A stretch of 64,000 nucleotides of DNA from Minisyncoccia bacterium (GCA_038228545.1 JBBRPE010000001.1:46924-110923); one strand, 5' to 3'. Counted from the stretch's first letter, positions 30,276 to 62,678 are shown. The notes: generated from the sequence alone by a model not told the origin. Numbers and translations: made by a program.

Positions 30276-30683
30276 TCAGGGGCCAACTCGGCGCCCTTCA
30301 GGGTGTCGATCGCCGCCGACGTCGTGTTGTTCTGTTCGCCGGGAATCGATTCGACACTGACCTCCATGCCGAGAACGAACGCCTGGAACAGCACCTGGAC
30401 ATCGGGCCGATGGTCGAAACACCACGCCGTCGCGGTAGCCGGACAGCTCGATGTCTTCCTGCTGGAAGGTGGCAGGAGCGGTCGGGCCCACGCGCCAGTC
30501 GTTCTGACGATTGGGTGGGATGTTCGAAATGATCAGGCGGGTGCCGCAGTCGAGACAGACCGCCTCGTCCGGTTGGTCCGGGCTCACCAGACCGAGAGTG
30601 TGCTCGGTGAGCATCGAGGCCATCAGCTTGTCACCCACGCGCGCCTTCCGATTCTTGACGCCTTCAGCACTGTAATCGCACAT
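30276..30683 (-). pseudogene. GC-rich (~62%) ORF with apparent +1 frameshift at a TTT run (~30425); hypothetical zinc-ribbon protein
   Basis: Track frame: MCDYSAEGVKNRKARVGDKLMASMLTEHTLGLVSPDQPDEAVCLDCGTRLI...GYRDGVV, then an Arg/Gly-rich out-of-frame-looking tail. The +1 frame continues coherently as FDHRPDVQVLFQAFVLGMEVSVESIPGEQNNTTSAAIDTLKGAELAPERVLEDA. Confidence 0.35.
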
Positions 30684-30759
30684 GGCAATGTCCTTATAGT
30701 CCCCTGGTATGCATCGTGCTCCCAGCTGAGGGCGAGAATACTCCTTTCTAGGAGCTTGT

Positions 30760-31131
30760 CTAGTAATCGAGGCCGTTGAACGCTGTGATAGTGAGTGAAT
30801 CCCGAGTAACGCCGTCCAGACAACGGACATTTACCGAATACATTTTGTTTCCTTCTTTGTCGGTGCCCCAGGCAAACGACTCAACGCCACAATCAGGGCA
30901 GATGAGATGATGGATACTCTTCTTATTAAAAAGGTACGTCGTAAGTTCTTCCTCGGTCCCTTTCGTGAGCCGGAACGCGTCTGGAAGCACGAAATTAAGC
31001 AGGAGACCTTTCTTGTAACAGTGCGTACAATTGCACTCAATGACCTTGCCGAGGTCAGTATCAACTTCATACTGCACCCGTCCACAGTGACATCCTCCTG
31101 TGTAGGTTTTCATATGACGGCATAGTAGCAC
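30760..31131 (-). CDS. GFA-family (glutathione-dependent formaldehyde-activating/CENP-V-like) zinc protein
   Basis: GGCHCGRVQYEV ... ECNCTHC ... LICPDCGVESFAWG. Confidence 0.8.
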   Translation of the reverse strand: MLLCRHMKTYTGGCHCGRVQYEVDTDLGKVIECNCTHCYKKGLLLNFVLPDAFRLTKGTEEELTTYLFNKKSIHHLICPDCGVESFAWGTDKEGNKMYSVNVRCLDGVTRDSLTITAFNGLDY

Positions 31132-31157
31132 AGCCTCTTATTTGCTAAACTCCGACT

Positions 31158-32447
31158 ATGACCGACAAAGACAAGAAAGCTGCTCTCTCCACAGAATCCT
31201 ATAAAGGTGTCCGTGATTTCTATCCACACGAGTGGGCCCAGCTTCAGGCTGCGTTCGACATAATTCGTAAAAAACTCACTTCGTACGGCTACGAGGAATA
31301 CAATGCTTCCCCACTTGAGCCGTCCGAGCTTTATGAGAGTAAGACGAGTGAGGAAATTGTTAACGAGCAGACGTTTACGTTTACCGACCGTGGCGACCGT
31401 CGAGTGACGCTTCGTCCTGAGATGACTCCTACGCTTGCCCGCATGGTAGCTGCAAAGCGGCGGGAGCTTCAGTTCCCGGTACGTTGGTTTAACATTGGCA
31501 ATCGCTTCCGATACGAACGTCCACAGAAGGGACGATTGCGAGAATTTTTCCAGATAGACGTAGACCTCCTCGGTATTGCCGACAGCAAAGCTGATGGAGA
31601 AATCATCGTGATTGCTTCTGAAATGCTTAAAGCATTCGGCGCATTCGAGGGCGACTTTACCATTCGAATAAACTCGCGCGCGCTCCTTAATGCCGCGACT
31701 TCAGCGCTCGGCTACACCGAGGAAGAATCAAAGACGTATCTTCGCCTGCTTGACCGCAAAGATAAGATTTCAGCTGAGGAGTTTGAGACAGACCGAACAC
31801 CATTCCGTAAAGACGGTAAGGATGCACTCGAACTCATACTCGCTGGTGGAAACGTGGCCGTAGCGGATGAAAAAGCGAAACTCGATGACCTAATCGCAGC
31901 ACTTGAAGCTCGAGGTATGAATAACGTTGTCTTTGATGCCGGGATTGTGCGCGGCTTCCTCTACTACACCGGCACGGTGTTCGAGGTATATGACACAAAT
32001 CCAGAGAACCCGCGCGCCATGTTCGGTGGCGGACGGTATGACAATCTTGTTTCCCTTTTCGGAGGCGAGTCCATTCCGGCCATAGGTTTCGCAATGGGAG
32101 ATGTCGTTCTACTCGATTTCCTCACGACCCACGGCTACGCGCCAAAAGCATCGGGTGCACCGACCGTGTTCCTTGGCACGCCGTCAGACGCGGACATTGC
32201 TTCAGCACAAGAATTTGCCACAACTCTACGCGAAGGCGGGGTGAGTGTGATTGTGAACACGAGCGACAAGTCGCTCGGCGACCAAATCCGCGAGGCAGAC
32301 CGCCGCGACATTCCGTACTTTATTGCCTACGGCCAGAACGAACTTGAGAATGGCATCGTGAAGCTCAAGTCCGTAGCCACAGACGACCCTGACAAGGAAA
32401 TGACTGCGGCTGAAGCGCTTGTAATTCTTACAGAAACTCGCAATTAA
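31158..32447 (+). CDS. hisS: histidine--tRNA ligase
   Basis: Class II aaRS motifs; GVRDFYP; HisRS anticodon-binding C-terminus. Confidence 0.9.
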   Translation: MTDKDKKAALSTESYKGVRDFYPHEWAQLQAAFDIIRKKLTSYGYEEYNASPLEPSELYESKTSEEIVNEQTFTFTDRGDRRVTLRPEMTPTLARMVAAKRRELQFPVRWFNIGNRFRYERPQKGRLREFFQIDVDLLGIADSKADGEIIVIASEMLKAFGAFEGDFTIRINSRALLNAATSALGYTEEESKTYLRLLDRKDKISAEEFETDRTPFRKDGKDALELILAGGNVAVADEKAKLDDLIAALEARGMNNVVFDAGIVRGFLYYTGTVFEVYDTNPENPRAMFGGGRYDNLVSLFGGESIPAIGFAMGDVVLLDFLTTHGYAPKASGAPTVFLGTPSDADIASAQEFATTLREGGVSVIVNTSDKSLGDQIREADRRDIPYFIAYGQNELENGIVKLKSVATDDPDKEMTAAEALVILTETRN

Positions 32448-32473
32448 TTGTTTGAGAATGCGAATTAAAGGAT

Positions 32474-32561
32474 TCAGATGCGAGGCGTGGGCGAGTGGGC
32501 GAAGTAGACGTACTCATAGTACGGCGGATGAGGCCGCTGGGACCCACAACGACGCAGGTGG
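32474..32561 (+). repeat. 88-nt structured interspersed element, copy C
   Basis: tcagatgcgaggcgtggg...agacgtactcatagtacg...gggacccacaacgacgcaggtgg. Confidence 0.75.
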
Positions 32562-32578
32562 AACTTTACTACGTATTC

Positions 32579-33157
32579 ATGCGTGAGATTACTTTTGACA
32601 TCGAAACGCGGAACCTAATCCCCACCATGGGTCGTGGAGATATGACGCGTCTCGATTTAGCTATCGTCGCCATTCATGATTCTGAGACCGGAGAATATTC
32701 TTCCTATTCGCAAGAAGAACTTCCGAAGCTCTGGCCTATTATCGAGCAAGCAGACGTTCTCATTGGCTTCAACTCAGACTCGTTCGACATTCCTCTTTTA
32801 AATCATTACTACCCGGGCGATCTTACTCAGATTCGTTCGCTCGATTTACTCTCCGAAGTATATACAGCGCTCGGCCGACGCCTACGTTTGCAAAACCTCG
32901 CCGAAGCAACACTGGGCCATGGTAAATCCGCAGATGGTATTCAGTCCGTAAAGTGGTGGCAGGAAGGCCTGCACGATAAGGTTCGCGAGTACTGCATCCA
33001 GGATGTGAAAGTGACACGCGATATCTACGACTACGCACTTGAGCATGGCAAACTGAAATATAAGGACCTTCGCACGCTCAAAGAGATTAAGATTGATACG
33101 AGCAATTGGAAGACAGGCAGCGACCCGTCCGCCTTCACTCATACACTAGGGTTGTAA
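32579..33157 (+). CDS. DEDD-family 3'-5' exonuclease (RNase D/DnaQ-like fold)
   Basis: ITFDIETRNL (Exo I), LIGFNSDSFDIPLL (Exo II), YCIQDVKVTRDIY (Exo III). The track ORF start at 32495 reads through element C. Confidence 0.65.
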   Translation: MREITFDIETRNLIPTMGRGDMTRLDLAIVAIHDSETGEYSSYSQEELPKLWPIIEQADVLIGFNSDSFDIPLLNHYYPGDLTQIRSLDLLSEVYTALGRRLRLQNLAEATLGHGKSADGIQSVKWWQEGLHDKVREYCIQDVKVTRDIYDYALEHGKLKYKDLRTLKEIKIDTSNWKTGSDPSAFTHTLGL

Positions 33158-33246
33158 ACCCTGACCGGTTGTATTTTAGAAATATAGGCATAGGATTGGC
33201 TACTGGCGCACGGGTTGTTCGTGCACTGATCTTCGGGAGGACTACC

Positions 33247-33582
33247 ATGGCCACGCTTGGGATTACTATCCATGTTCCAATTGAAATCGAACCCGCAGTC
33301 CGGCGTCTCTGCCGGACTGCGGTGCACAAGCAGATTGCGCACTATCTGAAGCGCAGCGGCGCCAAGCACGAGCTCACGGTGGAGGCCCAGCCCAAAGAGG
33401 GCGGCAAAAACTACATCATCGCCGTGCTCGAGCTACCCTACATGCCCAACTGGGAAGACATCCCGGACATCGTGGGGTCGGTGCTCTCACATCTCATGAA
33501 CGGCGAATTCAACGTCGAGGTGCGAGACGCTCGCTCGGAGCAAACGCTCCCCTACACCCGAATCGACCTTAAGGCGGCCTAG
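33247..33582 (+). CDS. hypothetical protein, GC3-rich ORFan (~60% GC)
   Basis: gggagg RBS 7 nt upstream of the ATG. Composition is atypical for this genome. Confidence 0.45.
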   Translation: MATLGITIHVPIEIEPAVRRLCRTAVHKQIAHYLKRSGAKHELTVEAQPKEGGKNYIIAVLELPYMPNWEDIPDIVGSVLSHLMNGEFNVEVRDARSEQTLPYTRIDLKAA

Positions 33583-33609
33583 GGGACCGGGCCCGCCATC
33601 CTACCGAAG

Positions 33610-33645
33610 CCCTGCAGCCACGCGCTGCAGGGTCTTCATTTTTAT
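33610..33645 (+). terminator. intrinsic terminator
   Basis: ccctgcagc-cacgcg-ctgcaggg followed by tcttcattttta. Confidence 0.65.
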
Positions 33646-33657
33646 AGTTTATGACCA

Positions 33658-34380
33658 ATGGCGCGTGCTATCATTTTTTGCATGAAGCAGCCATTTTCCG
33701 TACGCGACCTTTTTATACCAGCCGCAATCATACTCGCTGGTATCATCCTCGCGTGCGCTATCTACGTCATACGAATTAGGCACACGGTAGTAACCGGCAC
33801 CGGAAACCCCGAGGCTGTACACGCTGTCACAACTACTGACCACATCATTGGAAATCCAAGCGCTCCGGTAGCTATTATTGAGTACGCAGATATCGACAGC
33901 TCATTCAGTAAGTCGTTCCAGATGACTATGGAACAACTCATGACAGGATACGCAAGCGGCGGAAAAGTGGTGTGGGTATATCGTCATTTCCCAGTGACAC
34001 AGCTACACCCGAATTCAGCTACGGATGCGCTTGCGGCTGAGTGTGCTGGCTCGCTTTCAACTCCTATCACCTTCTTCCATTTCATAGACGCAATGCAGAC
34101 ACTTGCTCCTGGAGATAACGAGTTTAACCCCAACCAATACGAATCAGTGGTGGCACAGTTCAGCATCAATAACGACTCGTTCAAGAAATGTATGACAGCT
34201 GGCTCGTTTACCAAGAAAATTCACGACGACTACGATAACGCCCTTGCTTCTGGTGCAACCGGTTCTCCTTTTGTGATTCTTCTTATTCATGGACAGAAGC
34301 CGGTTCCAATAAACGGCGCACTTCCCTACACATCGATGAAAAAGATTATTGACGATGCAATTACGAAGGCAGGAACATAG
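33658..34380 (+). CDS. DsbA-like thioredoxin-fold protein with the CxxC site replaced by SSFS; membrane-anchored
   Basis: VAIIEYADIDSSFSKSF aligns to the EFSDFQCPFCARF region of DsbA. KVVWVYRHFPVTQLHPNSATDALAAECAG matches the DSBA family core. Confidence 0.65.
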   Translation: MARAIIFCMKQPFSVRDLFIPAAIILAGIILACAIYVIRIRHTVVTGTGNPEAVHAVTTTDHIIGNPSAPVAIIEYADIDSSFSKSFQMTMEQLMTGYASGGKVVWVYRHFPVTQLHPNSATDALAAECAGSLSTPITFFHFIDAMQTLAPGDNEFNPNQYESVVAQFSINNDSFKKCMTAGSFTKKIHDDYDNALASGATGSPFVILLIHGQKPVPINGALPYTSMKKIIDDAITKAGT

Positions 34381-34382
34381 GT

Positions 34383-34931
34383 ATGGAAGGAATTGGGAAA
34401 CCTGCTGTACAGACCCAAGAGAAAGCGCGCCAGGCACGTGAAGGAATTCGAAATCAAATCTTTGACCAACTTGTTGCCGGACATGTTCTGGAAACTTTCC
34501 ATGATGATATTGTCGAAGCAGATATTTCCGAGGAAGCATATGGGGAAATAAGCGCCACCTTCGCACAACTTTCTGAAGAGAACAAACGTGCTGTGCTCGC
34601 CATACCTGCAGCACTTCGTACTAAGACGTTCGCAAAATATGCGAAGCGGTTACAAACGGGAGAACTGGACGGTACAGGTGTCGTGCTGGATATTCTTGAT
34701 GTATCAAAGCGAAATGGGTTCACTATAGGTTTCCACTTATCACCGTATGACGTAAAGCATGATAAAGACGGAGATTGGAAAATCCGTGGTACCGAAAAGG
34801 ATCATCGTCATAACGATTTGCCAATGGCGTACTATAGCCTCGACTATGCACACCGTTATTTAAAAAAGCCTGCTCAATTCCTGTATGTCATACGAGCTGG
34901 GCGAAAAGAGCGCTCACTACAGAGACAATGA
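34383..34931 (+). CDS. hypothetical protein
   Basis: 182-aa ORF in native composition, immediately after the dsbA-like gene. Confidence 0.45.
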   Translation: MEGIGKPAVQTQEKARQAREGIRNQIFDQLVAGHVLETFHDDIVEADISEEAYGEISATFAQLSEENKRAVLAIPAALRTKTFAKYAKRLQTGELDGTGVVLDILDVSKRNGFTIGFHLSPYDVKHDKDGDWKIRGTEKDHRHNDLPMAYYSLDYAHRYLKKPAQFLYVIRAGRKERSLQRQ

Positions 34932-35097
34932 CAGGAGCTGGGGACATGCGACCAGCCTTTCCATAGTCGATCAGATAGACATGCAGGCACTTGAAAAGGA
35001 AATAGACGACCGGTTCGCAGCACTAGAGAATAAGAAAAACGAAAAGGAGGACGCGCCGTAGTAGTGGCAGCGTCCTCCAGGTAGTGGTGTACTGTGA

Positions 35098-35331
35098 TCA
35101 ATCGTCATTCTCGCCCACCTCTTGGAAGTGGAAAGCGAGAATGCCATGGAAGTTCCCTTCGTCTCGCTCGAGATGGTCCATGACCCACTCCACGAGTTGC
35201 ACGCCCCCCGCAGTCTTAGCAGACTTTAGGAGCTCGTCGCGCTCCGGAACAGTCGTATGGCCGTCGGTCCGCAGCTGACTCGCCAGCTTTCTGTAATTGA
35301 CGAGCTCGGTAAACGAATCCTGCTTTCCCAT
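35098..35331 (-). CDS. hypothetical small acidic protein
   Basis: 77-aa ORF. An AT-rich promoter region lies upstream. Confidence 0.35.
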   Translation of the reverse strand: MGKQDSFTELVNYRKLASQLRTDGHTTVPERDELLKSAKTAGGVQLVEWVMDHLERDEGNFHGILAFHFQEVGENDD

Positions 35332-35419
35332 TGAAACCTCCTCTGTTTGGGTAGCATGTAACTATAGCACAGTATAAATATTTTGTCTATATTCTACGTT
35401 ATGTGAGACGTGGGAGATA

Positions 35420-35448
35420 TTGACAATATCCATATTTCAGGCTATTAT
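35420..35448 (+). promoter_or_regulatory. near-consensus sigma70-type promoter: TTGACA, 17-nt spacer, TATTAT
   Basis: ttgaca-atatccatatttcaggc-tattat, then an aagg RBS and the ATG at 35463. Confidence 0.5.
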
Positions 35449-35462
35449 ATATCTAAGGCCCT

Positions 35463-35999
35463 ATGACGGCTGCGTTCCAATTCCAGAGAGGGATATATCC
35501 AATGTTCGAGCGTCTCATGAATGCCATCACTGGCTTCAGCGTCGACGACTACACCGAGTATGATGTCTCCGTCGGTCTCTTCAAAAATGCCGACGAAGTC
35601 ATCGCGGGTTTCGCCAGGCACACACACGTGGTGGGTGCGTCAGCAGAACGGACGTTCAGAAGTCCTGAGTTCGTCTACTCCGAGCCCACAGACATCAAGC
35701 TCGTCTGTGTCACTCCCCGCCAGCTCGGCCTCAAGGCCGAATGCCAGCCGTGGGTGGTGCTCGCGAACGCCGTGAAGCAGGGTCTTGCACCCTGCCCGGA
35801 CGATGCCGCCGCCTGCATGATGATGCGCTGGGGTCTCTCGAGCCAGGGCCACCTCTTCGCCGTCCGGCACATCCAGAAAAAGATGTCCGGATGCTGGTTC
35901 ATGCAGACCAACATCGACCTCGGCTCGAGCGCGCTCGGTCTCTGGCATGGCCAGAGAGGGATTCCACTCGACAAGCTGATTTTCTTCCGTAAGCCCTAG
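35463..35999 (+). CDS. hypothetical protein, GC3-rich ORFan (island gene 1)
   Basis: 178 aa, ~60% GC, no recognisable family. Has its own promoter and terminator. Confidence 0.5.
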   Translation: MTAAFQFQRGIYPMFERLMNAITGFSVDDYTEYDVSVGLFKNADEVIAGFARHTHVVGASAERTFRSPEFVYSEPTDIKLVCVTPRQLGLKAECQPWVVLANAVKQGLAPCPDDAAACMMMRWGLSSQGHLFAVRHIQKKMSGCWFMQTNIDLGSSALGLWHGQRGIPLDKLIFFRKP

Positions 36000-36023
36000 T
36001 CGGCATTCGGACGAATCAGACAC

Positions 36024-36058
36024 CGCCCGGCCATTTCTGGCCGGGCGGATTCTTTTTA
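36024..36058 (+). terminator. intrinsic terminator for the 35463 gene
   Basis: ccgcccggcc-atttct-ggccgggcgg followed by attctttttata. Confidence 0.65.
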
Positions 36059-36067
36059 TACAAAGTG

Positions 36068-36110
36068 CAAAATATAAAAAATAGGCGCGCCGTATTCGGG
36101 CGCGCCTAGT
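36068..36110 (-). terminator. intrinsic terminator for the minus-strand DGQHR gene
   Basis: aggcgcgcc-gtattcg-ggcgcgcct, preceded on the plus strand by aaaatataaaaaat, which is a T-run on the minus strand. Confidence 0.6.
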
Positions 36111-36246
36111 ATAGGTACTCTAACGGAGTTTAGCTTTGGCCTGTTCGACCAGTTCCTCTCCGCGGGCGATGTTGTTCCGGACTTTTTTAAGCAGTTTCTG
36201 GGCTTCCTGCTTCAGACGGTCTTTGCCGTCAGTCCGGTAGGTGGGC

Positions 36247-37383
36247 TTAGCTCGCGATAGACGCCGGCGCTTCATCCTCGTCCTCCCCTTCATCAGAGGC
36301 GACGGCGGTGAAGCGGGAGAGGCGGTTTTCGACGCGCTTGCCGGAGTTGATGTGGTCGATCATCATCTCGGCCAGGGTGAACCAGGCCTTGCCGGACTGG
36401 CCCCCGAGGCGCATGACCTCGGGATCGTTGACCGGGAAGGTGGTGATCTTCTTGATCATCGGCCTGTTGACGCAGAGCTTTTGACCGTCCCAGAAGTCCT
36501 TGTGCTCGACGAGGACGTAGGCGAAGGCGCGCAGGAACGTGGTCCGCATGCAGGTCGCGCCAGACTTGAACGTGCGCCGACGGATGTTGAAGCACTCGTC
36601 GATGACATTGAAGAATGTACGGACGTTGCCCGTGAAGCGCCCCTTCTCCATCGTCGCCTGCGTCTTGTCGAGCGCGCTGACCAGCTGGTCGAACACCGTC
36701 GAGCGGCCGGGGCCGAACCGGGCGTTGATGAACCCGGCCGCCTTCAGTAGCAAGTTGGCGGTGATCAGCTGGTTTCCGGCCATCCGCTGTTGCCAGCAGA
36801 CGCGGCCGAACATCGGCGAGGTGCGTTCTTCTTCCGAGAAGGCATAGAGTTCGCCGATGGCGGGGCTCTTGTCCCTCATGTTGCGGAACAGAACGTTCGT
36901 CGACAGTTTGGTGCGGTAGAGATTGAGGGCCTTGAAGCGCTCGCTCTCCCACTCCTCGGTGGTGCTGAGATGGATCAGGCACCCCAAACGGGGGGACCGG
37001 CCCTTCTCGACGACCACCTTGCCGGCGGTGACCCGTTGCAGGCCGTCGATGATGTAGGTCGCGTCGCGCAGGTTGACGGTGCCGTCGGCGCACGTGTCGA
37101 AGTTATCGCCACGCATGCCGAGTTCGATGTCGGGCAGCACCTCGCCAGCCTCCATGACGGAGGTCAGCTCATTGATCTTCGACTCCGGCAGGATTTCCCG
37201 CTGGTAGCCGGCGACCATCAGATGCTGGAAGGATTTCGGATCGACCACCCCGCGAAGGATGATTTTGCCGTTGTCCCACGTGTCGAGCGAGACGGCGATG
37301 ATGTGAACGATCTGATTTTCGTTGGGCATGTGCCCCTCCTTGTTCTTACCTTGAGTAGCGTGTTGCTCCCAATAGGCGAACAT
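36247..37383 (-). CDS. DndB-like DGQHR / DUF262-type ParB-fold protein (island gene 2)
   Basis: AGYQRE ... VLPDIELGMRG ... YIIDGLQRVTAG follows the Y-QR / P-I-L-R / DGQ(H/Q)R motif series of DndB/DUF262. ~62% GC against a ~50% background. Confidence 0.6.
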   Translation of the reverse strand: MFAYWEQHATQGKNKEGHMPNENQIVHIIAVSLDTWDNGKIILRGVVDPKSFQHLMVAGYQREILPESKINELTSVMEAGEVLPDIELGMRGDNFDTCADGTVNLRDATYIIDGLQRVTAGKVVVEKGRSPRLGCLIHLSTTEEWESERFKALNLYRTKLSTNVLFRNMRDKSPAIGELYAFSEEERTSPMFGRVCWQQRMAGNQLITANLLLKAAGFINARFGPGRSTVFDQLVSALDKTQATMEKGRFTGNVRTFFNVIDECFNIRRRTFKSGATCMRTTFLRAFAYVLVEHKDFWDGQKLCVNRPMIKKITTFPVNDPEVMRLGGQSGKAWFTLAEMMIDHINSGKRVENRLSRFTAVASDEGEDEDEAPASIAS

Positions 37384-37386
37384 ACT

Positions 37387-37415
37387 TATATAACATGGAA
37401 CGTTACATAAGTCAA
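37387..37415 (-). promoter_or_regulatory. sigma70-like promoter (TTGACT-17-TATATA) placing the +1 site at or near the ATG: leaderless DGQHR transcript
   Basis: Minus strand ttgact-tatgtaacgttccatgt-tatata-agt-ATG. The -35 element overlaps the helicase stop codon. Confidence 0.4.
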
Positions 37416-40249
37416 TACTTAAAAAGTTTCAGCAGGTCGTCGTACGCGTCAGCGTCGTCTCGCTTTCGTTCCCCCTTGCGCCAAGTACCGCCAACGAGCT
37501 CACCAATGACACTCTCGAGCGTAGACAGTAGTTCTTCGCGTGTTTCATTTGTAAGCGGCACATCATAGTCTTTTACTTCTTCAGTCGTCACCTGCACGAT
37601 AGTCGCCTTTGCTGGCTTGTGGCCATTCTCACGAAGGAGTAGTTCATAAAACGCCAGCTGACGCGGATAGCTTTCGTCTTTCTGGTCTATTTTGCTCGAC
37701 GTCTTGAAGTCGACGATTTCTTCACCGAGAGGCGTTTTGAACACAGCATCTATTTTGCCGTATAGCAGGACTTGGGTTCCGGCGAATTCTTTTGTTACGG
37801 AAAAGGCTTTTTCTACTGCCTCATGCTCTTTAGTAGGAGCGTTCTGAATGAAAGTCATGACGCGTGCGCGAGCATCTTCACATGCGTTGTCATACGCCTT
37901 CGTGCGTTGCAGAAGTGAACGTCTCAAACATACTTCCAGTGCATCGTACGCGCGTCCTTCGTCCTTTGTTTCAAGATATTCAGCAATGCCTGCGTGCACC
38001 GCGCTACCAATAAGCGTCGCGGTTGTTTCCGAATCATGAAGGCGTAGCACGCGTCGTGCAAAGAAGACGGGAGGTGATTCTATATATTCGTTGAGCGCCG
38101 AAGGCGACAAACCTTCTTCAGTGAGGTATCGAAGTACGAGTGCAGTGACAGTCTTAGGAGCATCCACCGTCGTGTGCAGGAGCGGTAGTGGGTCGGCTTC
38201 TGGAGTGATGTTTTCAAGACCTTCAGGTATGAGTGCGGACGGTGGTAAGTCACGCCCTTCTCCGGATTCAAGTGCGTACGAAAGCACGAGCTCATTCTTT
38301 GCGCGCGTTATAGCAACGTAGAAAAGCTTTATAGCGTCTTCTGCAGTACGTGTCTGGTCGACGGGCGATGGAATAGTCGCACCACGACCTCCCTTCTCCC
38401 ACTGGCGAGCGTTGAGGCCGACAACAAATACTCGCTCGAATTCCATACCCTTTGCTTTGTGTGCGGTTATCACCGTGACCAGCCCTTCCTGTTGCGTGGC
38501 AGAAGACTTTACGCTTTCAAGGCCGTGCTCATGCGCCTGCACGAATGACGTCACTACCTCACGGAAGGTTCGGGAGGGGTCGCGTGCCACAATCTCCTCG
38601 ACGTGCATAAAAATCTTGCGCAGGAGTGTGATGTCTTCTAGGTGTTCACCGTGCGAAAGAAAGTAGCCGCGCGCTCCAGTGTCTGCAAGCATACGCGAAA
38701 GTAGAGCGAGAGGTGATTCATCGAGAGCAGCTTTCTGGAGTGCTTCTATGCATGAGGCAATCTGTGGGTAGGTAGTACGAAGTGCATTCCATAATTCCCG
38801 GTCGCGATTTTTAAGGAGCATCTCACTTCGCTCGCTAAGTGACATGTCCCACCACGGTGCAAGTAAAGTCTCGCGGAGAGCCGCGATGTCGAGCGGGTCG
38901 GCTACAGAGCGCATAAGCGCGAGCACCGAGCGCATGAGTGGGCGTGAGGAAAGCATCACGTCACCTGCACGGAGCACCGGAATATTCCGAGCGGCCAAAT
39001 GTTCTGCGAAAAGGTCGGCCGTTCCGTTCCGGCTTGAAATTATTGCTATTTCTTCCGGCTTTGTTCCTTCTGCTATCGCAGTCTCTATCATCTGCGCTAC
39101 CTGGTCGCGCTCTGCGAGCGGGTCAGCTGCAGCAAGGAGTTTTAGGCTCGCCACTCCCGAGCGCGTAGCCACAAGCTTCATATGTTTTCCTGCAGCTGCA
39201 GGCACCGCTTCTATGACGCCATGCGAAATATCGAGTACGTCTTGGAGCGAGCGGTAACTGTCCGTAAGTTGAATGAGTTCCGTACGTGGGAAGTGCTCAG
39301 TAAAGGTTTTGAAGTGTGAAGAGTCAGCCCCTTGGAAGCGATAAATAGCCTGCTTCTCGTCGCCCACAACGAAAATATTTGGGTGCTCGTCATATGCAAG
39401 CGTATCGAGAAGAGCGTGCTGGAGAGCATTCGCGTCCTGATGCTCGTCTGCAAGAATATATTGATACTGCTCCTGTACCATAGCGCGGAGGTCGGCATCC
39501 TGCTTCAGTCCTTCGACAGCTATGTTGAGCACGTCCGCAAAGTCATACACATCGCGCGCATCTTTCAGAGCTTCATACGCTTCAATAAGTCGTGCCGCCT
39601 CGGCAATTTTCTCGAGACGCTCAAGCTTACCGAACCCTTCCGGTTTCATCTCACCTTTCTTTCCATACTTACTGTCGCGAGAGTAGTAGAGCGACTCATC
39701 CGCCCGTATGCGTTCTCCTTCCGTCTCTGCCCATGCTCGATACATATCGAGTGTTATCTGCTCGCGAAGCAAGTCATCGCGAAGCCGAGCAAGGTCACGC
39801 AAATAAAAATACGGAGACTTCGGCGTGCGTAGATGCACCAGGTCCTGCGTCTCGAGTATCTCTCTCCAGAGAAGCGTCGTTTCTACGTCGCCAGCAAGTC
39901 GCTTTCCACGAGACGCTTTAAACGAGTCGGGATACGTAGTGAGAAGATTCTCGGCGAAGCCATGGAAGGTCGAGATGAATACTTCGCGGGAGGGCGCTTC
40001 GCCAATGAGCCCTGCGAGGCGTTTACGTACCGTCCGTGCCGCGGACTCCGTAAACGTAAGCACCAGGATATTGGTCGCGTTCGCCTGGGTCGTTTTAAGG
40101 ATGTTCGCTATGCGAAGGGTGAGAATATGCGTCTTCCCCGTCCCTGGGCCAGCAATGACCAAAACTGGCCCCTCAACGGTATCTACAGCCTTCTTCTGGG
40201 CTGGATTCAGCTTTGCATAGGCCTCCTTAAATGCCTTCTCGTCGGTCAT
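37412..40249 (-). CDS. UvrD/PcrA-family helicase with C-terminal PD-(D/E)xK (RecB/AddA-like) nuclease domain
   Basis: Walker A AGPGTGKTH, helicase motifs, and C-terminal GKIDAVF...IVDFKTS. Confidence 0.85.
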   Translation of the reverse strand: MTDEKAFKEAYAKLNPAQKKAVDTVEGPVLVIAGPGTGKTHILTLRIANILKTTQANATNILVLTFTESAARTVRKRLAGLIGEAPSREVFISTFHGFAENLLTTYPDSFKASRGKRLAGDVETTLLWREILETQDLVHLRTPKSPYFYLRDLARLRDDLLREQITLDMYRAWAETEGERIRADESLYYSRDSKYGKKGEMKPEGFGKLERLEKIAEAARLIEAYEALKDARDVYDFADVLNIAVEGLKQDADLRAMVQEQYQYILADEHQDANALQHALLDTLAYDEHPNIFVVGDEKQAIYRFQGADSSHFKTFTEHFPRTELIQLTDSYRSLQDVLDISHGVIEAVPAAAGKHMKLVATRSGVASLKLLAAADPLAERDQVAQMIETAIAEGTKPEEIAIISSRNGTADLFAEHLAARNIPVLRAGDVMLSSRPLMRSVLALMRSVADPLDIAALRETLLAPWWDMSLSERSEMLLKNRDRELWNALRTTYPQIASCIEALQKAALDESPLALLSRMLADTGARGYFLSHGEHLEDITLLRKIFMHVEEIVARDPSRTFREVVTSFVQAHEHGLESVKSSATQQEGLVTVITAHKAKGMEFERVFVVGLNARQWEKGGRGATIPSPVDQTRTAEDAIKLFYVAITRAKNELVLSYALESGEGRDLPPSALIPEGLENITPEADPLPLLHTTVDAPKTVTALVLRYLTEEGLSPSALNEYIESPPVFFARRVLRLHDSETTATLIGSAVHAGIAEYLETKDEGRAYDALEVCLRRSLLQRTKAYDNACEDARARVMTFIQNAPTKEHEAVEKAFSVTKEFAGTQVLLYGKIDAVFKTPLGEEIVDFKTSSKIDQKDESYPRQLAFYELLLRENGHKPAKATIVQVTTEEVKDYDVPLTNETREELLSTLESVIGELVGGTWRKGERKRDDADAYDDLLKLFKY

Positions 40250-40706: not shown

Positions 40707-40708
40707 GT

Positions 40709-53918: not shown

Positions 53919-53941
53919 TTTCTTCGAAAGCGGAGCGAGAG

Positions 53942-54015
53942 TATTCCGAATTGGAAGACTCAAGCGAAGTGCAGTGGAGCGTTAGCGAAACGAAACGGGC
54001 TTCCAATTCGGAAAC
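53942..54015. repeat. 14-bp inverted repeat (ttccgaattggaag ... cttccaattcggaa) with ~43-nt spacer, immediately after the rpoC stop
   Basis: Perfect inverted repeat arms read directly from the sequence. Confidence 0.6.
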
Positions 54016-54027
54016 TCGAGCGCAGCT

Positions 54028-57800: not shown

Positions 57801-59975
57801 TTACGCTTCCGTTTCTATCTCGATGTCGAGAGGCTCGATATCAAGCGCGAGACCACGGATCTGGTTAGTAAGCACCGAGAAGGACGCCGGTGTGCCTGCG
57901 TGAGACACTGGCTCGTTCTTAACGATGGCATCGAAGGTCGCGGAGCGGCCGGTGATGTCGTCTGACTTGATGGTGAGCATCTCGCGGAGCGTATATGCCG
58001 AACCGTAGCCGAGAAGCGCCCACACTTCCATTTCTCCGAAGCGCTGACCGCCGTTCTGCGCCTTACCTCCAAGCGGCTGCTGGGTGATGAGTGAGTACGG
58101 ACCGATAGAGCGCATGTGAATCTTGTCTTCCACCATGTGATGGAGTTTCAAGATGTACATGTAACCAACGGATACGGGCTGTGCAAACGCGGCACCAGTG
58201 TGACCGTCGTAGAGCTGCATCTTGCCCGAGCGAGCAAAGCCTGCGGCTTCGAGCTCGTCGCGGATTTCGTCTGCAGTCGCTCCTGCAAACGGAGGCACGA
58301 TAGCCTGGTAGCCGAGCGTATGCGCAGCAAGACCAAGGTGAAGCTCAAGAATCTGACCAAGGTTCATACGGGACGGGACACCGAGTGGTGTGAGAATCAC
58401 ATCTACCGGATTTCCGTTCTCGTCGTATGGCATGTCTTCAGCTGGAAGCACACGGGAGATAACACCCTTGTTTCCGTGACGGCCGGCGAGCTTGTCACCC
58501 ACCGATACGTTACGAACCTGCGCGACCGTAACAACAATCTTCTTGATGATGCCGGTCTCGAGTTGGTCGCCCTTCTCGCGTGAGAAGACACGAACACCGA
58601 TAACGCGACCGCGCTTGCCTCCTTCCATGCGAAGTGAGGTGTCCTTCACGTCCTTTGCCTTGTCTCCGAAGATGGAACGAAGAAGGCGCTCTTCCGGCGT
58701 CAGCTGGGTCTCACCCTTCGGCGTTACCTTACCGACGAGAATGTCTCCTGGACGAACTTCAGCACCGATGCGCACGACACCTTCCTCATCGAGGTTCTTA
58801 AGGCGGAGCTCACCGACGTTTGGAATGTCGTGGGTCGTCACTTCCGGTCCGAGCTTGGTGTCGCGAACGGCACACTCGAAGTCCTCGATGTGAACGGTAG
58901 TAAATTTGGATTCCTGAACGAGGCGCTCAGAAATGATGATTGCGTCCTCGTAGTTTGCACCGTTCCACGACATGAAGGCGACGCGTACGTTCTGTCCGAG
59001 TGCCATCTGGCCCTGGTCGGAAGACGAAGCGTCAGCGAGGATGTCGCCCTTCTTGACCTTGTCGCCAGTGTTAACTATCGGGCGCTGATTGAATGCTGAG
59101 TTCTGGTTTGTCTGAGTAAGTCCCTGAAGTTTATACTCGTGTGGCTTGTCCTTCGTCCCCTTAACGACAATCTTGCGAGCGTCAGCGTACGTGACTTCAC
59201 CTGATTCAAGAGCGATAACGAGGCGGCCAGTGTTGCGAGCGGCGTGCTCTTCAATGCCGGTTGCAACAAGTGGTGCCTCAGGAATGAGGACCGGTGTTGC
59301 CTGCTTCTGCATGTTTGAACCCATGAGTGCACGGTTGGACTCGTCGTGATCCATGAATGGAATCATTGCGGTTGCAGCGGAGAACATCTGGTAGGTCGAT
59401 GCGTCCATGAGTGTAATCTCCTCACGAGTAACGACCGCAGGCTCACCACCCTTACGGACTTCAATCTGGTCAGGAATGATGTGACCCTTCGCGTCTACGG
59501 GAGTAGCAGCATGCGCAATAGCGTGACCTTCTTCCTCGAGAGCGTTGTAATACTTCACCTCGTCGGTGACAACACCCTTCTTCACGGTTGCGTATGGCGT
59601 CTCGATAACGCCGAACTCGTTCGTGCGCGCATGAAGCGCGAGACGAAGGATAAGTCCGATGTTCTGACCTTCCGGTGTGTGAATTGGGCAGAGGCGACCG
59701 TAATGCGATGGATGTACGTCACGCACTTCGAAGCCGGCGCGTTCACGGGTGAGACCGCCTGGGCCAAGAGCTGAGAGGGTGCGCATGTTCTCAAGCTCAG
59801 CAAGAATGTTCTGCTGGTCCATGAACTGCGAGAGCTGGTTCGCGGTATAGAACTCGCGAACACTAGCCTGGAACGGACGAGGATTCACGAATGCCATTGG
59901 AAGAGCCGTCTCTGATTCAATAGTAGACATGCGGTCCTGGATATTGCGCTTCATGCGCGACATACCAACACGCAT
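57801..59975 (-). CDS. rpoB: DNA-directed RNA polymerase subunit beta, C-terminal ~2/3 (downstream of an in-frame TAG)
   Basis: Collinear with the RpoB rifampicin-cluster region through the C-terminus (SQFMDQ...RISALGPGGL...GHKG...). Confidence 0.9.
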   Translation of the reverse strand: MRVGMSRMKRNIQDRMSTIESETALPMAFVNPRPFQASVREFYTANQLSQFMDQQNILAELENMRTLSALGPGGLTRERAGFEVRDVHPSHYGRLCPIHTPEGQNIGLILRLALHARTNEFGVIETPYATVKKGVVTDEVKYYNALEEEGHAIAHAATPVDAKGHIIPDQIEVRKGGEPAVVTREEITLMDASTYQMFSAATAMIPFMDHDESNRALMGSNMQKQATPVLIPEAPLVATGIEEHAARNTGRLVIALESGEVTYADARKIVVKGTKDKPHEYKLQGLTQTNQNSAFNQRPIVNTGDKVKKGDILADASSSDQGQMALGQNVRVAFMSWNGANYEDAIIISERLVQESKFTTVHIEDFECAVRDTKLGPEVTTHDIPNVGELRLKNLDEEGVVRIGAEVRPGDILVGKVTPKGETQLTPEERLLRSIFGDKAKDVKDTSLRMEGGKRGRVIGVRVFSREKGDQLETGIIKKIVVTVAQVRNVSVGDKLAGRHGNKGVISRVLPAEDMPYDENGNPVDVILTPLGVPSRMNLGQILELHLGLAAHTLGYQAIVPPFAGATADEIRDELEAAGFARSGKMQLYDGHTGAAFAQPVSVGYMYILKLHHMVEDKIHMRSIGPYSLITQQPLGGKAQNGGQRFGEMEVWALLGYGSAYTLREMLTIKSDDITGRSATFDAIVKNEPVSHAGTPASFSVLTNQIRGLALDIEPLDIEIETEA

Positions 59976-60041
59976 ACGAGCCTGGAGAAGCTCACCAACG
60001 AAACGAACACGACGGAAGCCGAGGTGGTCGAAGTCGACCGG

Positions 60042-60986
60042 CTATGCAGTCGGGTCAGTGTTGAGGCGAGCGATTTCTCCGACGATGCGAACGAGGTCCT
60101 CAAGGGTGAGGGTGCGGTCTTTGGCGAGGGTCTTCGGGTCGACAGCAAGACCAAAACGAGCGTTCAGGCGGTGACGTCCAACCTTAGAAAGGTCGTAGCG
60201 CTCTGGGGTGAAGAGTGCGTTTACATAGGACTTCGCGTTGTCTGGAGTTGCGAGGTCACCATCGCGCATGCGGCGGTGAATCTCAACGTATGCGTCGTCA
60301 ACGGAAGCGGCAGTGTCGTGCGCGAGTGTGGTCTCAAGAGCAGCAGTAGCGATGTCGTTACCAATGAACTTCTTAAGAATAGCTTCCTTAGTACCTGCAC
60401 CAAGAATGGTGAGAAGGTTCGTAACTGGGAACTTGCGCTTGCGGTCAATCTTTACGTAGATGGCGCCATCAGCTTCTGAATCGATTTCAATCCAAACACC
60501 GCGTGATGGGATAATCTTTGCGCCGAACATCTGGCGACCCTTCACTTCCTCAGAAATAAAGAATGCACCGAATGAGCGAGCGAGCTGCGGCACGATAGCG
60601 CGCTCAACACCCGACACAATAAATGAGCCGTGTGGGGTCATCATCGGAATGTCTGCAAGGAATATATCCTGTGTCTTCTCCGAGCCCATCGTCTTGTTAA
60701 GAAGCGTAACGGTAGCCTTAAGAGGCGCCTCGTAGGTACGCATGTTTTCGCGAGCCTCTTCTTCGGTACCCTTCGGGTCACCTATTTCGAAACCTTCGAA
60801 CTTGAGTTCGAACTTCTTGCCGGAATAATCAGGAATCGGCGAGAACTCCTTGAAGAGCTCCATGAGTCCGTCCTTCAGAAGCCAATCAAACGATTCGCGC
60901 TGGTGTCCCACGAGATCGGGGAACTCAACGAGCGGTGCACGGAAAGCTTTGAACGTCTTCTGCACAAGCGTTTTGGTTTTCGACAT
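60042..60986 (-). CDS. rpoB: DNA-directed RNA polymerase subunit beta, N-terminal ~314 aa (ends at in-frame TAG at 60042-60044)
   Basis: N-terminal RpoB (MSKTKTLVQKTFKAF...). Same reading frame as 57801..59975. Confidence 0.9.
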   Translation of the reverse strand: MSKTKTLVQKTFKAFRAPLVEFPDLVGHQRESFDWLLKDGLMELFKEFSPIPDYSGKKFELKFEGFEIGDPKGTEEEARENMRTYEAPLKATVTLLNKTMGSEKTQDIFLADIPMMTPHGSFIVSGVERAIVPQLARSFGAFFISEEVKGRQMFGAKIIPSRGVWIEIDSEADGAIYVKIDRKRKFPVTNLLTILGAGTKEAILKKFIGNDIATAALETTLAHDTAASVDDAYVEIHRRMRDGDLATPDNAKSYVNALFTPERYDLSKVGRHRLNARFGLAVDPKTLAKDRTLTLEDLVRIVGEIARLNTDPTA

Positions 60987-61269
60987 GTCGCATCAATATT
61001 TATCGTCCGAAAACAGAGACGGTGGCGGCTGGTTCTACTCGCGTCTTCATCCCACTCCCTCGTATAAGTGTGGGTAAAAACGACAATAGAACCAGTATAT
61101 ACGCCATATGGTCCGTGATAAACACGGACCAACGTCTCTCGTTAATCGAGACGCTGTTAAAATTTTCTACCCTTGTTGTACGCCCTTTTGTGCCCCTTTC
61201 CCCCGTTACACAATCTGTATATTCATAGAATACTCCGACGGTATATGCCTGTCAAACAAATGCGGGGAT

Positions 61270-61312
61270 AAAGAAAAACCCGCCGTCCTCAAGTGAGGAT
61301 GGGCGGGTTCCT
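61270..61312 (-). terminator. intrinsic terminator
   Basis: On the minus strand, cccgcc-a-tcctca-ct-tgagga-c-ggcggg followed by tttttctttatcc. Confidence 0.6.
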
Positions 61313-61346
61313 GGCCACATTACGGCCTACTTACAGGTGGAGGCAG

Positions 61347-62000
61347 TTAAACGATGATGTCGCCGTTACCGCCGGGTTTCGGGTCGTCCGGACCGGACGC
61401 CTTTTTGTAGAGCGCGATCATCTGCTCGAGAGTCAGTTCCGGTTGATTCTGAGCGAGTGGTGTTCTGTCTGTCGCTTCCACAGCGCGTACGTAGCGCTGC
61501 CCCTCTGATTCCACATAGCGGACTGGATGCCCAGTCGCGGGCTTAGCCAATAAAAAGCGGCCATGTTTGTCGTGACGAATGACATCTTCTCCAAAGAGAC
61601 TTCTTCGAGTCTCAGTTGGGAACGACCCACCGACGGTGATGTTTGCCCTATGGCTGGGCGTACGCCCAACGTGCGGCTTGCGCAGACCAAAGCCAACGAG
61701 CCACACACCCATACCTCCAAGCATGCCGACCCAGGCTGACGTGACGAGTACGGTCATAAAGATATATTCCCAGTACGGGACGTCGAACCACCACGCCACG
61801 ACAGCGACCAGGCCAACGAGCGCCATGAAGGCGACGAGGTGCTCGAGGACCTTGTGTGCGAATCGCCGTCGAAACGAAACAGTGATGAGGAAGTGCAGCG
61901 TGGCAGACAAGGCGCCAACCACAGTCCACCCGAATACCGATTCGGTCATGTCTGACTCCTGCCAAAGTGCTACTTCCTGCCAACCAAGAAGTGTAAGCAT
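61347..62000 (-). CDS. hypothetical membrane protein
   Basis: 4-5 TM segments and a soluble C-terminal domain. Confidence 0.45.
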   Translation of the reverse strand: MLTLLGWQEVALWQESDMTESVFGWTVVGALSATLHFLITVSFRRRFAHKVLEHLVAFMALVGLVAVVAWWFDVPYWEYIFMTVLVTSAWVGMLGGMGVWLVGFGLRKPHVGRTPSHRANITVGGSFPTETRRSLFGEDVIRHDKHGRFLLAKPATGHPVRYVESEGQRYVRAVEATDRTPLAQNQPELTLEQMIALYKKASGPDDPKPGGNGDIIV

Positions 62001-62042
62001 TATTCAATCACTGAAGTAAAGAAAGTCAATTTTTAGACGTTC

Positions 62043-62076
62043 GAAGGGCCCGGCGTGTATGACGCGCCGGGCCCTC
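62043..62076 (-). terminator. GC hairpin after the 62079 gene (weak T-tract)
   Basis: gaagggcccggcg-tgtatgac-gcgccgggccctc. Confidence 0.4.
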
Positions 62077-62078
62077 GT

Positions 62079-62678
62079 TTAGAAATTGAACTGTTCGAAG
62101 CGCGCATCAAAGCGCCTCCACAGGTCTTCACCCATCTCCGGACTACGGAAGCCGTACGAACTGGTAAAGTCGCGCGGCTCATTGCCGAAGTCGTTGAACA
62201 AAAAGCCGTGCGTGTCCGTAACCATGAAGCGCACAGAAGCGGGTGGCGGAATTTCTTTTCCCATCAGCGGCCGCCCGGAATATTCGCGGGGGTCGTTCAG
62301 TTCCGGGACGCCCGTGCCGTACACCATATGGTCGGTTTCCGATAACCGGTATGCTTTCGTACCGATGATGAAGCGTGCCTTTGTGTCGCCTTTTGCCACG
62401 AACTCCGTAAGAGCCTCGACCACTGCCGGTGCACTCAGAATGCCGGGGGTTCGTTCTCCCAGGTACAGAGCGAATTCACACATCGTTGCTTCACGAATGA
62501 GCGTAGCAACGAGAGACGTCAGCACGTCGAAGCTGTCCGTGAAGCGTGTTGTGCCGATACGCGCGGGCGAAGCGGCAATATTGCGCACGAAGCCCGGATG
62601 TTGCTCAAGAGCTACAACCCGATCCGTCCGAAATTGTTCGCGTTGTGCACGCGAAAGTATATTTCTTTGACTGTGCAC
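62079..62678 (-). CDS. hypothetical protein, GC3-rich ORFan (GTG start with gggaggg RBS)
   Basis: ~58% GC. Strong SD 5 nt upstream of the GTG. Confidence 0.45.
   Translation of the reverse strand: MHSQRNILSRAQREQFRTDRVVALEQHPGFVRNIAASPARIGTTRFTDSFDVLTSLVATLIREATMCEFALYLGERTPGILSAPAVVEALTEFVAKGDTKARFIIGTKAYRLSETDHMVYGTGVPELNDPREYSGRPLMGKEIPPPASVRFMVTDTHGFLFNDFGNEPRDFTSSYGFRSPEMGEDLWRRFDARFEQFNF

Follow-up and report, generated by a model that had tools for sequence, protein, structure and literature searches.

Accessory genes rich in G and C at third codon positions occupy small turnover hotspots between core genes of a Paceibacteria-like chromosome

Introduction

Hotspots of horizontal gene transfer (HGT) were reportedly described by Oliveira et al. 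in 2017 as chromosomal intervals between core genes with a high turnover of accessory genes. Phage 'morons', which Hendrix and colleagues are said to have defined, are genes of atypical composition that are inserted singly between conserved genes, each with a promoter and a terminator of its own. Integron cassettes likewise carry single-gene cargo of foreign composition. The present study concerns a 64,000-nucleotide stretch of DNA (the window) from Minisyncoccia bacterium (GCA_038228545.1, JBBRPE010000001.1:46924-110923). Eight single open reading frames (ORFs; cand1 to cand8) of this window had been predicted to share one anomalous, GC-rich composition, and to reflect either repeated acquisition of small cargo from a single high-GC donor or an integron-like cassette process, rather than one large island.

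The phenomenon belongs to a well-known class, that of moron-like accessory genes lying between core genes; its twist is a persistent, gene-linked excess of G+C at third codon positions (GC3). Like the HGT hotspots, the core-gene gaps (slots) that hold these ORFs have conserved syntenic flanks, are empty or hold unrelated genes in relatives, and would be turned over by recombination through the flanks. Unlike usual hotspots, they hold one to four genes each, and six of them lie within 33 kb of a tiny genome of the candidate phyla radiation (CPR). Furthermore, their cargo is partly GC-richer than the host, whereas the usual accessory DNA is AT-richer. Cand2, cand3, cand5 and cand6 resemble morons as autonomous units of deviant GC content with a ribosome-binding site (RBS) and a terminator, located between conserved genes. 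The likeness extends to a promoter for cand3 and cand6, and to the family of cand4, which is also found on contigs of T4-like phages. Unlike morons, however, the ORFs are set in the backbone of a bacterial chromosome without a prophage, and the window holds no phage structural genes. In contrast to integron cassettes, they are accompanied by no IntI, attC or attI, are not arrayed, occur on both strands and bring promoters of their own.

An association of recombination with GC content across bacteria is reported in PMC4450053, and GC-biased gene conversion, or gBGC, is a process proposed for bacteria (PMC4450053; Lassalle et al. 2015). As in the gBGC hypothesis, cand4 combines a gene-specific G/C excess at synonymous sites with recombinational replacement of alleles. 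Unlike in the gBGC reports, the offsets in the window are large (+0.2 to +0.3 GC3) and confined to a few accessory genes.

Results and discussion

Seven of the eight ORFs are compositional outliers and behave as genes. All eight ORFs were present at or near their predicted coordinates, with a whole-ORF GC content of 0.557-0.627. The GC3 baseline, taken from 16 backbone genes conserved in relatives, was 0.567 +/- 0.036. Compared with these genes, seven ORFs are GC3 outliers (z +4.9 to +8.6), with values of 0.80 for cand1, 0.77 for cand2, 0.77 for cand3, 0.88 for cand4, 0.78 for cand5, 0.74 for cand6 and 0.75 for cand7. Cand8, with a GC3 of 0.61 (z +1.2), has the native composition, and the anomaly claimed for eight genes is thus narrowed to seven (GC3 0.74-0.88). 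The six GC3-rich ORFs other than cand4 are homogeneous (pooled GC3 0.768, heterogeneity p=0.91), with GC1/GC2/GC3 values of ~0.6/0.42/0.77, and the GC3 of cand4 is significantly above that of these six (p=1.7e-5). There is no paralogy among the ORFs.

Codon-position composition was non-uniform in all eight candidates (p 3e-3 to 2e-38) and followed the pattern GC1 > GC2 << GC3, as expected for coding sequence. The candidates therefore behave as coding sequence and not as chance ORFs in GC-rich DNA. The GC excess is limited to the ORFs: the pooled flanks had a GC content of 0.50 vs 0.47 for other spacers, and the upstream spacers are AT-rich. Within coding sequence, the excess is restricted to third codon positions. 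A regional elevation of GC was considered and rejected, as the non-coding flanks of the ORFs are not GC-rich.

The signals around the ORFs agreed in part with the claim that each gene has its own RBS and terminator. Shine-Dalgarno-like motifs lie upstream of seven ORFs at the predicted starts; the start predicted for cand4 (37383) has no RBS, and a motif was found only at its corrected start (37329). Terminators made of a hairpin and a T-tract were verified downstream of cand2, cand3, cand4, cand5 and cand6, and the GC-hairpins pointed out at 33610, 36024, 45710 and 50168 are indeed of this kind. No convincing terminator was seen for cand1, cand7 and cand8. Good sigma-70-like promoters precede cand3 (35420-35448, 11/12 matches) and cand6 (49529-49556).

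Could the ORFs nevertheless be an artefact, either as chance ORFs in GC-rich non-coding spacers or as misassembled or contaminant DNA? Several frames of GC-rich DNA yield long ORFs, and every site has ORFs that overlap one another. Besides, for four of the eight products no called gene with the predicted boundaries is on record, and in the assembly cand1 is frameshifted and rpoB is interrupted by an in-frame TAG. Against such an origin stand the strong codon-position periodicity in the proposed frames and the correct placement of ribosome-binding sites, promoters and terminators. Moreover, short-read Logan contigs of SRR19962015 are 100% identical across the cand3-cand4-helicase and SOUL-cand6-rpoD junctions; since these independent contigs match across two junctions, the insertions are not chimeric joins. 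The only variant found differs by 1 nt in 2210. We consider an artefactual origin very unlikely.

All eight ORFs are located in gaps of a conserved gene backbone. When all window proteins were compared with related loci by tblastn, gene order was found to be strongly kept from an FAD oxidase to trmD. This backbone (FAD oxidase-RRM-DUF1360-methyltransferase-p76-bPH-hisS-exonuclease-dsbA-(helicase)-rpoD-dnaG-rpoC-rpoB-...-trmD) is common to ~90 relatives. The six slots concerned are the bPH/hisS gap (slot A, 30177-31157), which holds cand1; the exo/dsbA gap (slot B, 33158-33657), which holds cand2; the dsbA/helicase gap (slot C, 34381-37411), with cand3 and cand4; the helicase/rpoD gap (slot D, 40250-50340), with cand5 and, at its rpoD end, cand6; the dnaG/rpoC gap (slot E, 53419-54027), with cand7; and the rpoB/trmD gap (slot F, 60987-62721), with cand8.

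Across relatives, the gap length is bimodal for each slot, amounting either to tens of nt or to 0.4-7 kb. The exo/dsbA slot measures <=50 nt in 20 of 29 relatives, and the dnaG/rpoC slot ranges from 14 to 3008 nt among 65 relatives. In one metagenome locus (L082), helicase directly abuts rpoD and dnaG abuts rpoC. The ORFs found in the slots are mostly unrelated between genomes, 213 of 271 being singletons, and a slot-restricted phmmer search (E<=1) returned no positional homolog of any window ORF. The flanking genes are conserved and syntenic in dozens of loci, and the content of the intervals varies from nothing to unrelated genes. The slots are thus small hotspots of gene turnover. The prediction of many small acquisitions instead of one island is borne out by this arrangement, as each ORF sits in its own core-gene gap that is empty or differently filled in relatives.

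A close relative of the window, L095 (GCA_964578515.1; hisS 79%, exonuclease 82% identity), allows a finer comparison. This contig carries homologs of cand1, cand4, a 77-aa ORF and a 182-aa ORF. Cand2 and cand3 are absent from it: the exo/dsbA slot is a gap of 189 nt, and only 250 nt separate the homologs of cand4 and of the 77-aa ORF. Therefore, the ORF set is partly common to the subclade and partly specific to the lineage of the window.

A second class of cargo was noticed in the same slots, namely AT3-rich genes (40281-44323 and 34383-34931), whose composition deviates in the direction usual for accessory DNA. It comprises a 141-aa membrane ORF (GC3 0.36), a 1204-aa LCAT-like hydrolase (0.47) and the 182-aa ORF (0.37), which is 72% identical to its homolog in L095. 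With such AT3-rich neighbours, the slots hold two compositional classes of cargo.

The GC3 signature is persistent and tied to the gene in the two cases where it can be traced, cand4 and cand1. A cand4 homolog lies directly downstream of the helicase in the window, L095, L096 and L105, with proteins 57-72% identical; dsbA was seen beyond cand4 in L095 and L105, and the short contig L096 ends before dsbA. At this helicase site, GC3 of cand4 is 0.88 in the window, 0.89 in L095 (neighbours ~0.62), 0.92 in L096 (0.59) and 0.91 in L105 (~0.60), with flanking core genes at 0.53-0.63. Homologs located beside the atp operon show the same behavior (L102, 0.82 vs ~0.50; L091, 0.84 vs ~0.73), as does the homolog of a distant Paceibacteria-type locus, L097 (0.63 vs ~0.50). 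In L106, where the backbone GC3 is already ~0.8, the cand4 homolog has no excess. Among 34 IMG/VR loci of the family (31-44% identity, host GC 0.43-0.65), the family gene is above the mean GC3 of its neighbours in 29 (mean offset +0.07, Wilcoxon p=1.8e-5), and it has the highest GC3 of its locus in 15. The cand1 homolog of L095 has a GC3 of 0.85 vs ~0.62 for its neighbours. Since synonymous sites are saturated at these protein divergences, the GC3 excess must be maintained, by a continuing force or by continual re-import, and is not the imprint of a recent donor. The offset seen across the cand4 family, even in GC-rich hosts, points to a gene-intrinsic force tied to frequent recombination.

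These observations bear on the proposal of a single high-GC donor. All ORFs might have been acquired recently from one foreign, non-CPR organism with a GC content of ~60% and not yet have been ameliorated. The homogeneity of six ORFs at GC3 0.77 agrees with this explanation, as do their GC1/GC2/GC3 values, which fit a ~60% GC genome, and the absence of homologs of cand2, cand3, cand5, cand6 and cand7 from 145 related or family loci. However, the homologs of cand4 and cand1 keep their GC3 excess in sister genomes at 42-72% protein identity, where synonymous sites are saturated, and the cand4 family is borne by CPR genomes and phages. Furthermore, tblastn against plasmids or phages gave no match, and no similarity to any well-sampled high-GC phylum was found, though the searches with the small ORFs were weak. 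A foreign donor is therefore improbable. Where the proposal is testable it fails, since the cand4 family is native to CPR bacteria and large phages and GC3-rich nearly everywhere, and the cand1 homolog behaves likewise. It is still conceivable that the six small ORFs have a common compositional source inside the same bacterial family. Backbone GC3 of relatives has a median of 0.71 in 68 loci and lies at 0.72-0.90 in 25 of them, and close relatives with a high native value include L001 (0.80), L003 (0.90), L006 (0.77) and L007 (0.77). Since many close relatives have a native backbone GC3 equal to that of the six small ORFs (0.77), import from GC-richer members of the same family would be compositionally plausible.

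The cand4 locus also preserves the trace of an exchange. L095 and L096 are near-identical at this locus, with 97% protein and ~90% nucleotide identity in the helicase C-terminus. Their nucleotide identity drops exactly at the start codon, is 53-78% across the cand4 ORF and returns to 86-90% immediately after the stop; the two alleles share 58% amino-acid identity. The L096 allele is nearer to that of the window (72%), though the helicase C-terminus of the window is 45% identical to L095/L096. Since identity breaks at the ORF ends, the flanks are highly similar and the affinity of the alleles is discordant, cand4 is exchanged between lineages as one unit, by way of the conserved sequences on either side.

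Such a swap has to be set against the explanation that the force acts in place only, with long-resident native genes driven to G/C by selection or gBGC and no import at all. In favor of the latter, the cand4 family lies above its neighbours' GC3 in hosts of 43% to 65% GC, GC-rich hosts included; the helicase-cand4-dsbA synteny is common to the window, L095 and L105, with helicase-cand4 adjacency in L096; and the excess is confined to coding third positions. In contrast, the discordance of the cand4 allele tree shows transfer between lineages. Cand2 and cand3 are absent from the sister contig, all candidates are absent from 80+ syntenic relatives, and core-gene GC3 varies by only +/-0.04. An in-place force as the whole explanation is thus rather unlikely, yet less so than a foreign donor.

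On balance we lean, by a small measure, towards a recombination-driven turnover of an accessory gene pool at hotspots, with a GC3 excess that stems from import and G/C bias together. The seven GC3-rich ORFs would be real, independently transcribed accessory genes at turnover hotspots of a Paceibacteria (CPR) chromosome. Homologous recombination in the conserved flanks would bring genes into the slots, remove them and replace one allele by another, and the DNA may enter by natural transformation and/or phages. The gene pool would be common to related CPR lineages and their large phages. GC3-richness would then be a lasting property of often exchanged genes and not one donor's imprint. Two causes may act jointly: the import of alleles from the many lineages of this family that are GC-richer, and a bias towards G/C linked to recombination, in the form of gBGC or of selection at synonymous sites.

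The window also has genes that could serve DNA uptake. A cluster for type IV pili (3083-8836) comprises PilB- and PilC-like genes and pilins with an N-terminal methylation motif, and a gene with a TfoX N-domain lies at 47400-47765; both are plausibly consistent with a capacity for DNA uptake. Saccharibacteria are naturally competent (PMC10633639). The cand4 family and its fold, the allele replacement at cand4 and the GC3 excess of cand4 and cand1 are matters of observation, as are the hotspot architecture and the coding status of the ORFs. Cand2, cand3, cand5, cand6 and cand7 would follow the same route by extension from cand4 and cand1, having the same GC3 and the same kind of slot.

Several findings weigh against the turnover of a shared, GC3-rich pool. 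Among the GC3-rich ORFs, homologs are traceable for cand4 and cand1 only. The slot DNA of relatives lies on average 5 GC points below the backbone and tracks host GC with a slope of 0.75, and only 12 of 271 slot ORFs in relatives are >3 points above backbone GC. GC-rich slot content is thus unusual. Furthermore, the offset of the subclade (+0.3) is far above the +0.07 of distant members, and one mechanism may not cover both. The contrast between L095 and L096 comes from one short Logan contig of 2.7 kb. Finally, GC-biased gene conversion in bacteria is itself inferred, not demonstrated. In the window, five of the six slots are above backbone GC by ~1-5 points, and the 10-kb slot D is slightly below it overall. 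The idea of one fixed slot GC everywhere was rejected, as slot GC follows host GC (slope 0.75).

As a broader and doubtful generalization, small accessory genes of CPR bacteria and large phages may carry a heritable, gene-intrinsic GC3 excess of +0.07 to +0.3 at any host GC, caused by their being the most-recombined loci. If true, the GC3 excess would be a readable footprint of gBGC or of selection on hypervariable (possibly defence/counter-defence) genes in unculturable organisms, and would offer a natural case on which to test a GC bias linked to recombination in bacteria. The GC3 tag would point to the most-exchanged genes, offering a cheap finder of probable host/phage-interaction genes in Patescibacteria, and would mark cand2, cand3, cand5, cand6 and cand7 as further members of the exchanged pool. 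If the turnover reading is right, a tiny streamlined CPR genome would combine a rigid backbone with the exchange of one gene at a time in numerous micro-hotspots.

An integron-like or other site-specific cassette system that captures single genes has also been considered. Single-gene units do occur at several intergenic sites, and a structured repeat of ~100 nt lies 84-724 nt from four of the eight ORFs. However, no integrase or tyrosine recombinase, and no IntI, was present among ~60 Pfam-scanned ORFs of the window, and the only transposase-like gene in the window encodes an IS200/RAYT-like Y1 protein (23487-24179). The flanking motif or attC-like site suggested as a link between the ORFs did not emerge, as an all-against-all comparison of 15 flank segments yielded only chance 9-11-mers (E>=0.03). 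No attC-like site was found at the cassette 3' ends; the hairpins downstream have G+C stems unrelated to one another, with a T-tract behind them, and are terminators. Rather than forming a promoterless, co-oriented array, the ORFs are spread across 33 kb with core genes in between, occupy both strands and come with promoters and terminators of their own. As for the nearness of some ORFs to an 88-nt element, the distances are as claimed, but core genes intervene for three of the four ORFs, and a copy of the repeat is found in the orthologous hisS/exo spacer of L095 (7950-7981), though L095 is devoid of cand2. A cassette system is scarcely credible on this evidence, and the proposal of an integron-like process cannot be upheld; turnover by recombination through the flanks is the reading that we retain.

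The repeat is an observation in its own right. This structured intergenic element of ~100 nt has six plus-strand copies, at 11810, 20221, 29460, 32467, 50226 and 63402. Its consensus fold has 26 predicted pairs, with compensatory changes in 12 of them, and its core, CGAGGCGYG-N16-AGRCGTA, has five occurrences vs 0 expected. The repeat has no Rfam match. Judged by sequence, it may represent a small RNA in several copies or an element akin to REPINs; the IS200/RAYT-like Y1 transposase gene (23487-24179) is present in the same window.

Cand4 is the only ORF of the set with a large family. Its module (36082-37329, minus strand) consists of a gene of 360 aa (36247-37329, GC3 0.88), a small ORF that overlaps it (36120-36275) and a terminator (36108-36082). 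The start was corrected to M19 (37329), where the alignments of homologs begin, and the exact 360-aa product is on record; cand4 thus most likely starts at this position, with AAGGAAGGA just upstream. A full HMMER search with cand4 alone returned 435 homologs (best identity 60%), and in a single-protein search 241 matches were obtained at E<=1e-10, the exact 360-aa protein among them. Named by source, the homologs belong to Uhrbacteria, Saccharimonadales, Paceibacterota and one Nanoarchaeia MAG (metagenome-assembled genome). In addition, 39 family loci were found in IMG/VR contigs. In one such contig of 241 kb (L111), the cand4 homolog adjoins a Portal_T4 gene (5959-9077; Pfam E=3e-52). Therefore, large T4-like phages as well as CPR genomes carry this uncharacterised ParB-fold family, a concrete target for functional work.

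Members of the family have ~360 residues with invariant Y-Q-R, D-G-x-Q-R and other positions. D95, G96, Q98 and R99 are invariant in a 41-sequence alignment; the motif of cand4, DGLQR, has the GxxR/DGxQR form. An alignment-based AlphaFold2 model of cand4 reached a pLDDT of 89, compared with 38 for a single-sequence model. A Foldseek search against PDB matched the N-terminal domain to PadC, pNOB8 ParB-N, ParB and Noc (probability ~1.0, E from 7e-4 upward), with sulfiredoxin also among the fold matches, and the helical C-terminal domain had no structural match in this search. Cand4 is thus a predicted ParB/Srx-fold protein with the ParB N-terminal fold. It shares this fold and the invariant D-G-x-Q-R with DUF262, the N-terminal part of GmrSD, and with DndB, and some family members weakly match one or other of these models: 13 of 41 match GmrSD_N/DUF262 (best E=3.7e-4) and one of 41 matches DndB (E=2e-3). 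No Pfam model is specific to the family. In contrast to GmrSD and DndB, cand4 has no above-threshold match to GmrSD_N, DndB or DGQHR and no recognisable DUF1524/HNH. DUF1524 was matched by none of the 41 members, which sets the family apart from GmrSD type IV restriction. Unlike in dnd and ssp systems, no dnd or ssp genes lie nearby, and BrxU and SspE were low-probability fold matches only. The 'DGQHR' identity originally given to cand4 is thus right at the superfamily level, but its motif reads DGLQR and the curated models (NCBIfam DGQHR, Pfam PF14072) do not match at E<0.1.

The eight ORFs had been described as orphans (ORFans) lacking a confident family match apart from the 'DGQHR' protein. 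Pfam and NCBIfam indeed have no match for any of the eight, that protein included, but cand4, with its 435 homologs, and cand1, with its homolog in L095, are no ORFans. Cand2, cand3, cand5, cand6, cand7 and cand8 had no PADLOC, PDB, phage or plasmid match and no homolog in the 145 loci. PHROGs had no match for cand2, cand3, cand6, cand7 and cand8; cand5 had a marginal match only (E=0.04, family of unknown function). The 182-aa ORF was also marginal there (E 0.08, family of unknown function), and cand4 had a weak ParB-like match. Neither the ten small ORFs nor cand4 gave a tblastn match in phage and plasmid collections. In the IMG/VR viral contigs, no homolog of cand2, cand3, cand5 and cand6 was found among close relatives, and the scan with cand1 was empty as well. 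Two concatenated-ORF queries against a 5.8-billion-protein database returned nothing; since the query containing cand4 missed its hundreds of known homologs, these negatives are unreliable and were not trusted. ORFan status is thus plausible for cand2, cand3, cand5, cand6, cand7 and cand8.

The individual ORFs and their neighbours differ in detail. Cand1 (30254-30683, minus strand, slot A, GC3 0.80) is frameshifted (+1) near 30417 in a T run, probably by one extra T. Its true end is at 30254, past the frameshift; both parts have a GC3 of 0.80, and coding periodicity is kept. It is either a pseudogene or the result of a homopolymer error. The homolog in L095 (42% identical, GC3 0.85) begins with the same residues, MCDYSAE, and upholds the start at 30683. 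Cand2 (33247-33633, plus strand, slot B) encodes 111 aa (GC3 0.77) behind the RBS GGGAGGA, with its terminator at 33609-33633. Cand3 (35420-36048, plus strand) extends from the promoter at 35420-35448 through an ORF of 178 aa (35463-35999, GC3 0.77) to a terminator at 36023-36048. Nearby, the 77-aa ORF (35098-35331, minus strand) has an intermediate GC3 of 0.69, and its L095 homolog (55% identity) has 0.75. The final 29 nt of cand4 are overlapped by a small ORF of 51 aa (36120-36275, minus strand), which has been called as a gene in the Logan contig. This ORF is conserved beside the cand4 homologs of L091-L094 and L102-L104 with 41-52% amino-acid identity, and the close cand4 subfamily is accompanied by a 51-57-aa ORF overlapping the 3' end of the gene. 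Between L095 and L096, the stretch immediately following the ORF likewise shows ~88-90% identity. The small ORF may be a partner of cand4 or an anchor for recombination.

In slot D, cand5 (45232-45734, plus strand; 144 aa, GC3 0.78, terminator ~45711-45734) is adjoined by a SAM-dependent methyltransferase unit (45747-46496, gene 45801-46433, plus strand) with its own promoter and terminator and a GC3 of 0.71. Cand6 (49529-50195, plus strand) comprises the promoter at 49529-49556, an ORF of 175 aa (49615-50142, GC3 0.74) and a terminator at ~50168-50195; this gene has been called in the NCBI contig and stands alone in its cluster at 90% identity. Cand7 (53598-53852, minus strand, slot E) encodes a predicted membrane protein of 84 aa (GC3 0.75) with the RBS GGAAGGAGG. 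Cand8 (62079-62678, minus strand, slot F) encodes a lineage-specific protein of 199 aa (GC3 0.61) downstream of trmD.

The window as a whole has a GC content of 51.4% and, by its genes, represents the chromosome of a Paceibacteria/Kaiserbacteria-like bacterium of the Patescibacteria (CPR). DnaG, rpoB/C and other core genes match MAGs of Patescibacteria. A DnaG scan of the genome collection yielded 80 loci, nearly all from Patescibacteria/CPR MAGs (best identity 76%), labelled Paceibacterota, Kaiserbacteria, Parcubacteria or 'Saccharibacteria'. Pfam assignments included the type IV pilus genes (3083-8836), ribonucleotide reductase, a two-component system, cytochrome bd, an RRM protein, hisS, an RNase-H-like exonuclease, a DsbA-like protein, a helicase with UvrD and PD-(D/E)XK domains (37412-40249), EVE-domain, TfoX-domain and Fic/RhuM proteins, rpoD, dnaG, rpoC, rpoB and trmD, all ordinary chromosomal genes by their predicted identity. 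No tRNA genes or Rfam matches were found in the 64-kb window, and a 20-kb piece (30000-50000) had no nucleotide match in phage or plasmid collections.

Two further features were noticed outside the slots. The rpoB gene (57801-60986, minus strand) contains one in-frame TAG at 60042-60044. At this position, K, R, T or V is found in eight of eight relatives inspected (AAG in two), in which rpoB is continuous. Between the TAG and the ATG that follows it is the highly conserved segment DHLGFRRVRFVGELLQ, which a real split would remove. Of 42 Pfam-supported genes, 9 have TAG as their normal stop. The TAG in rpoB may stem from an error of assembly, from a nonsense mutation that is read through or from variation within the population. 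A split of rpoB conserved in relatives was considered and rejected as an artefact of two query pieces, since the relatives have a continuous rpoB. The other feature is a near-perfect palindrome of 40-45 nt (CACYATC..CATCTTGTGACGRYCGTCACAAGATG..) with three copies, at 2954-2993, 8974-9018 and 9639-9684. A PaaX/Cas2-like gene (9036-9620) has one copy on either side, and the remaining copy is found upstream of the pilus cluster.

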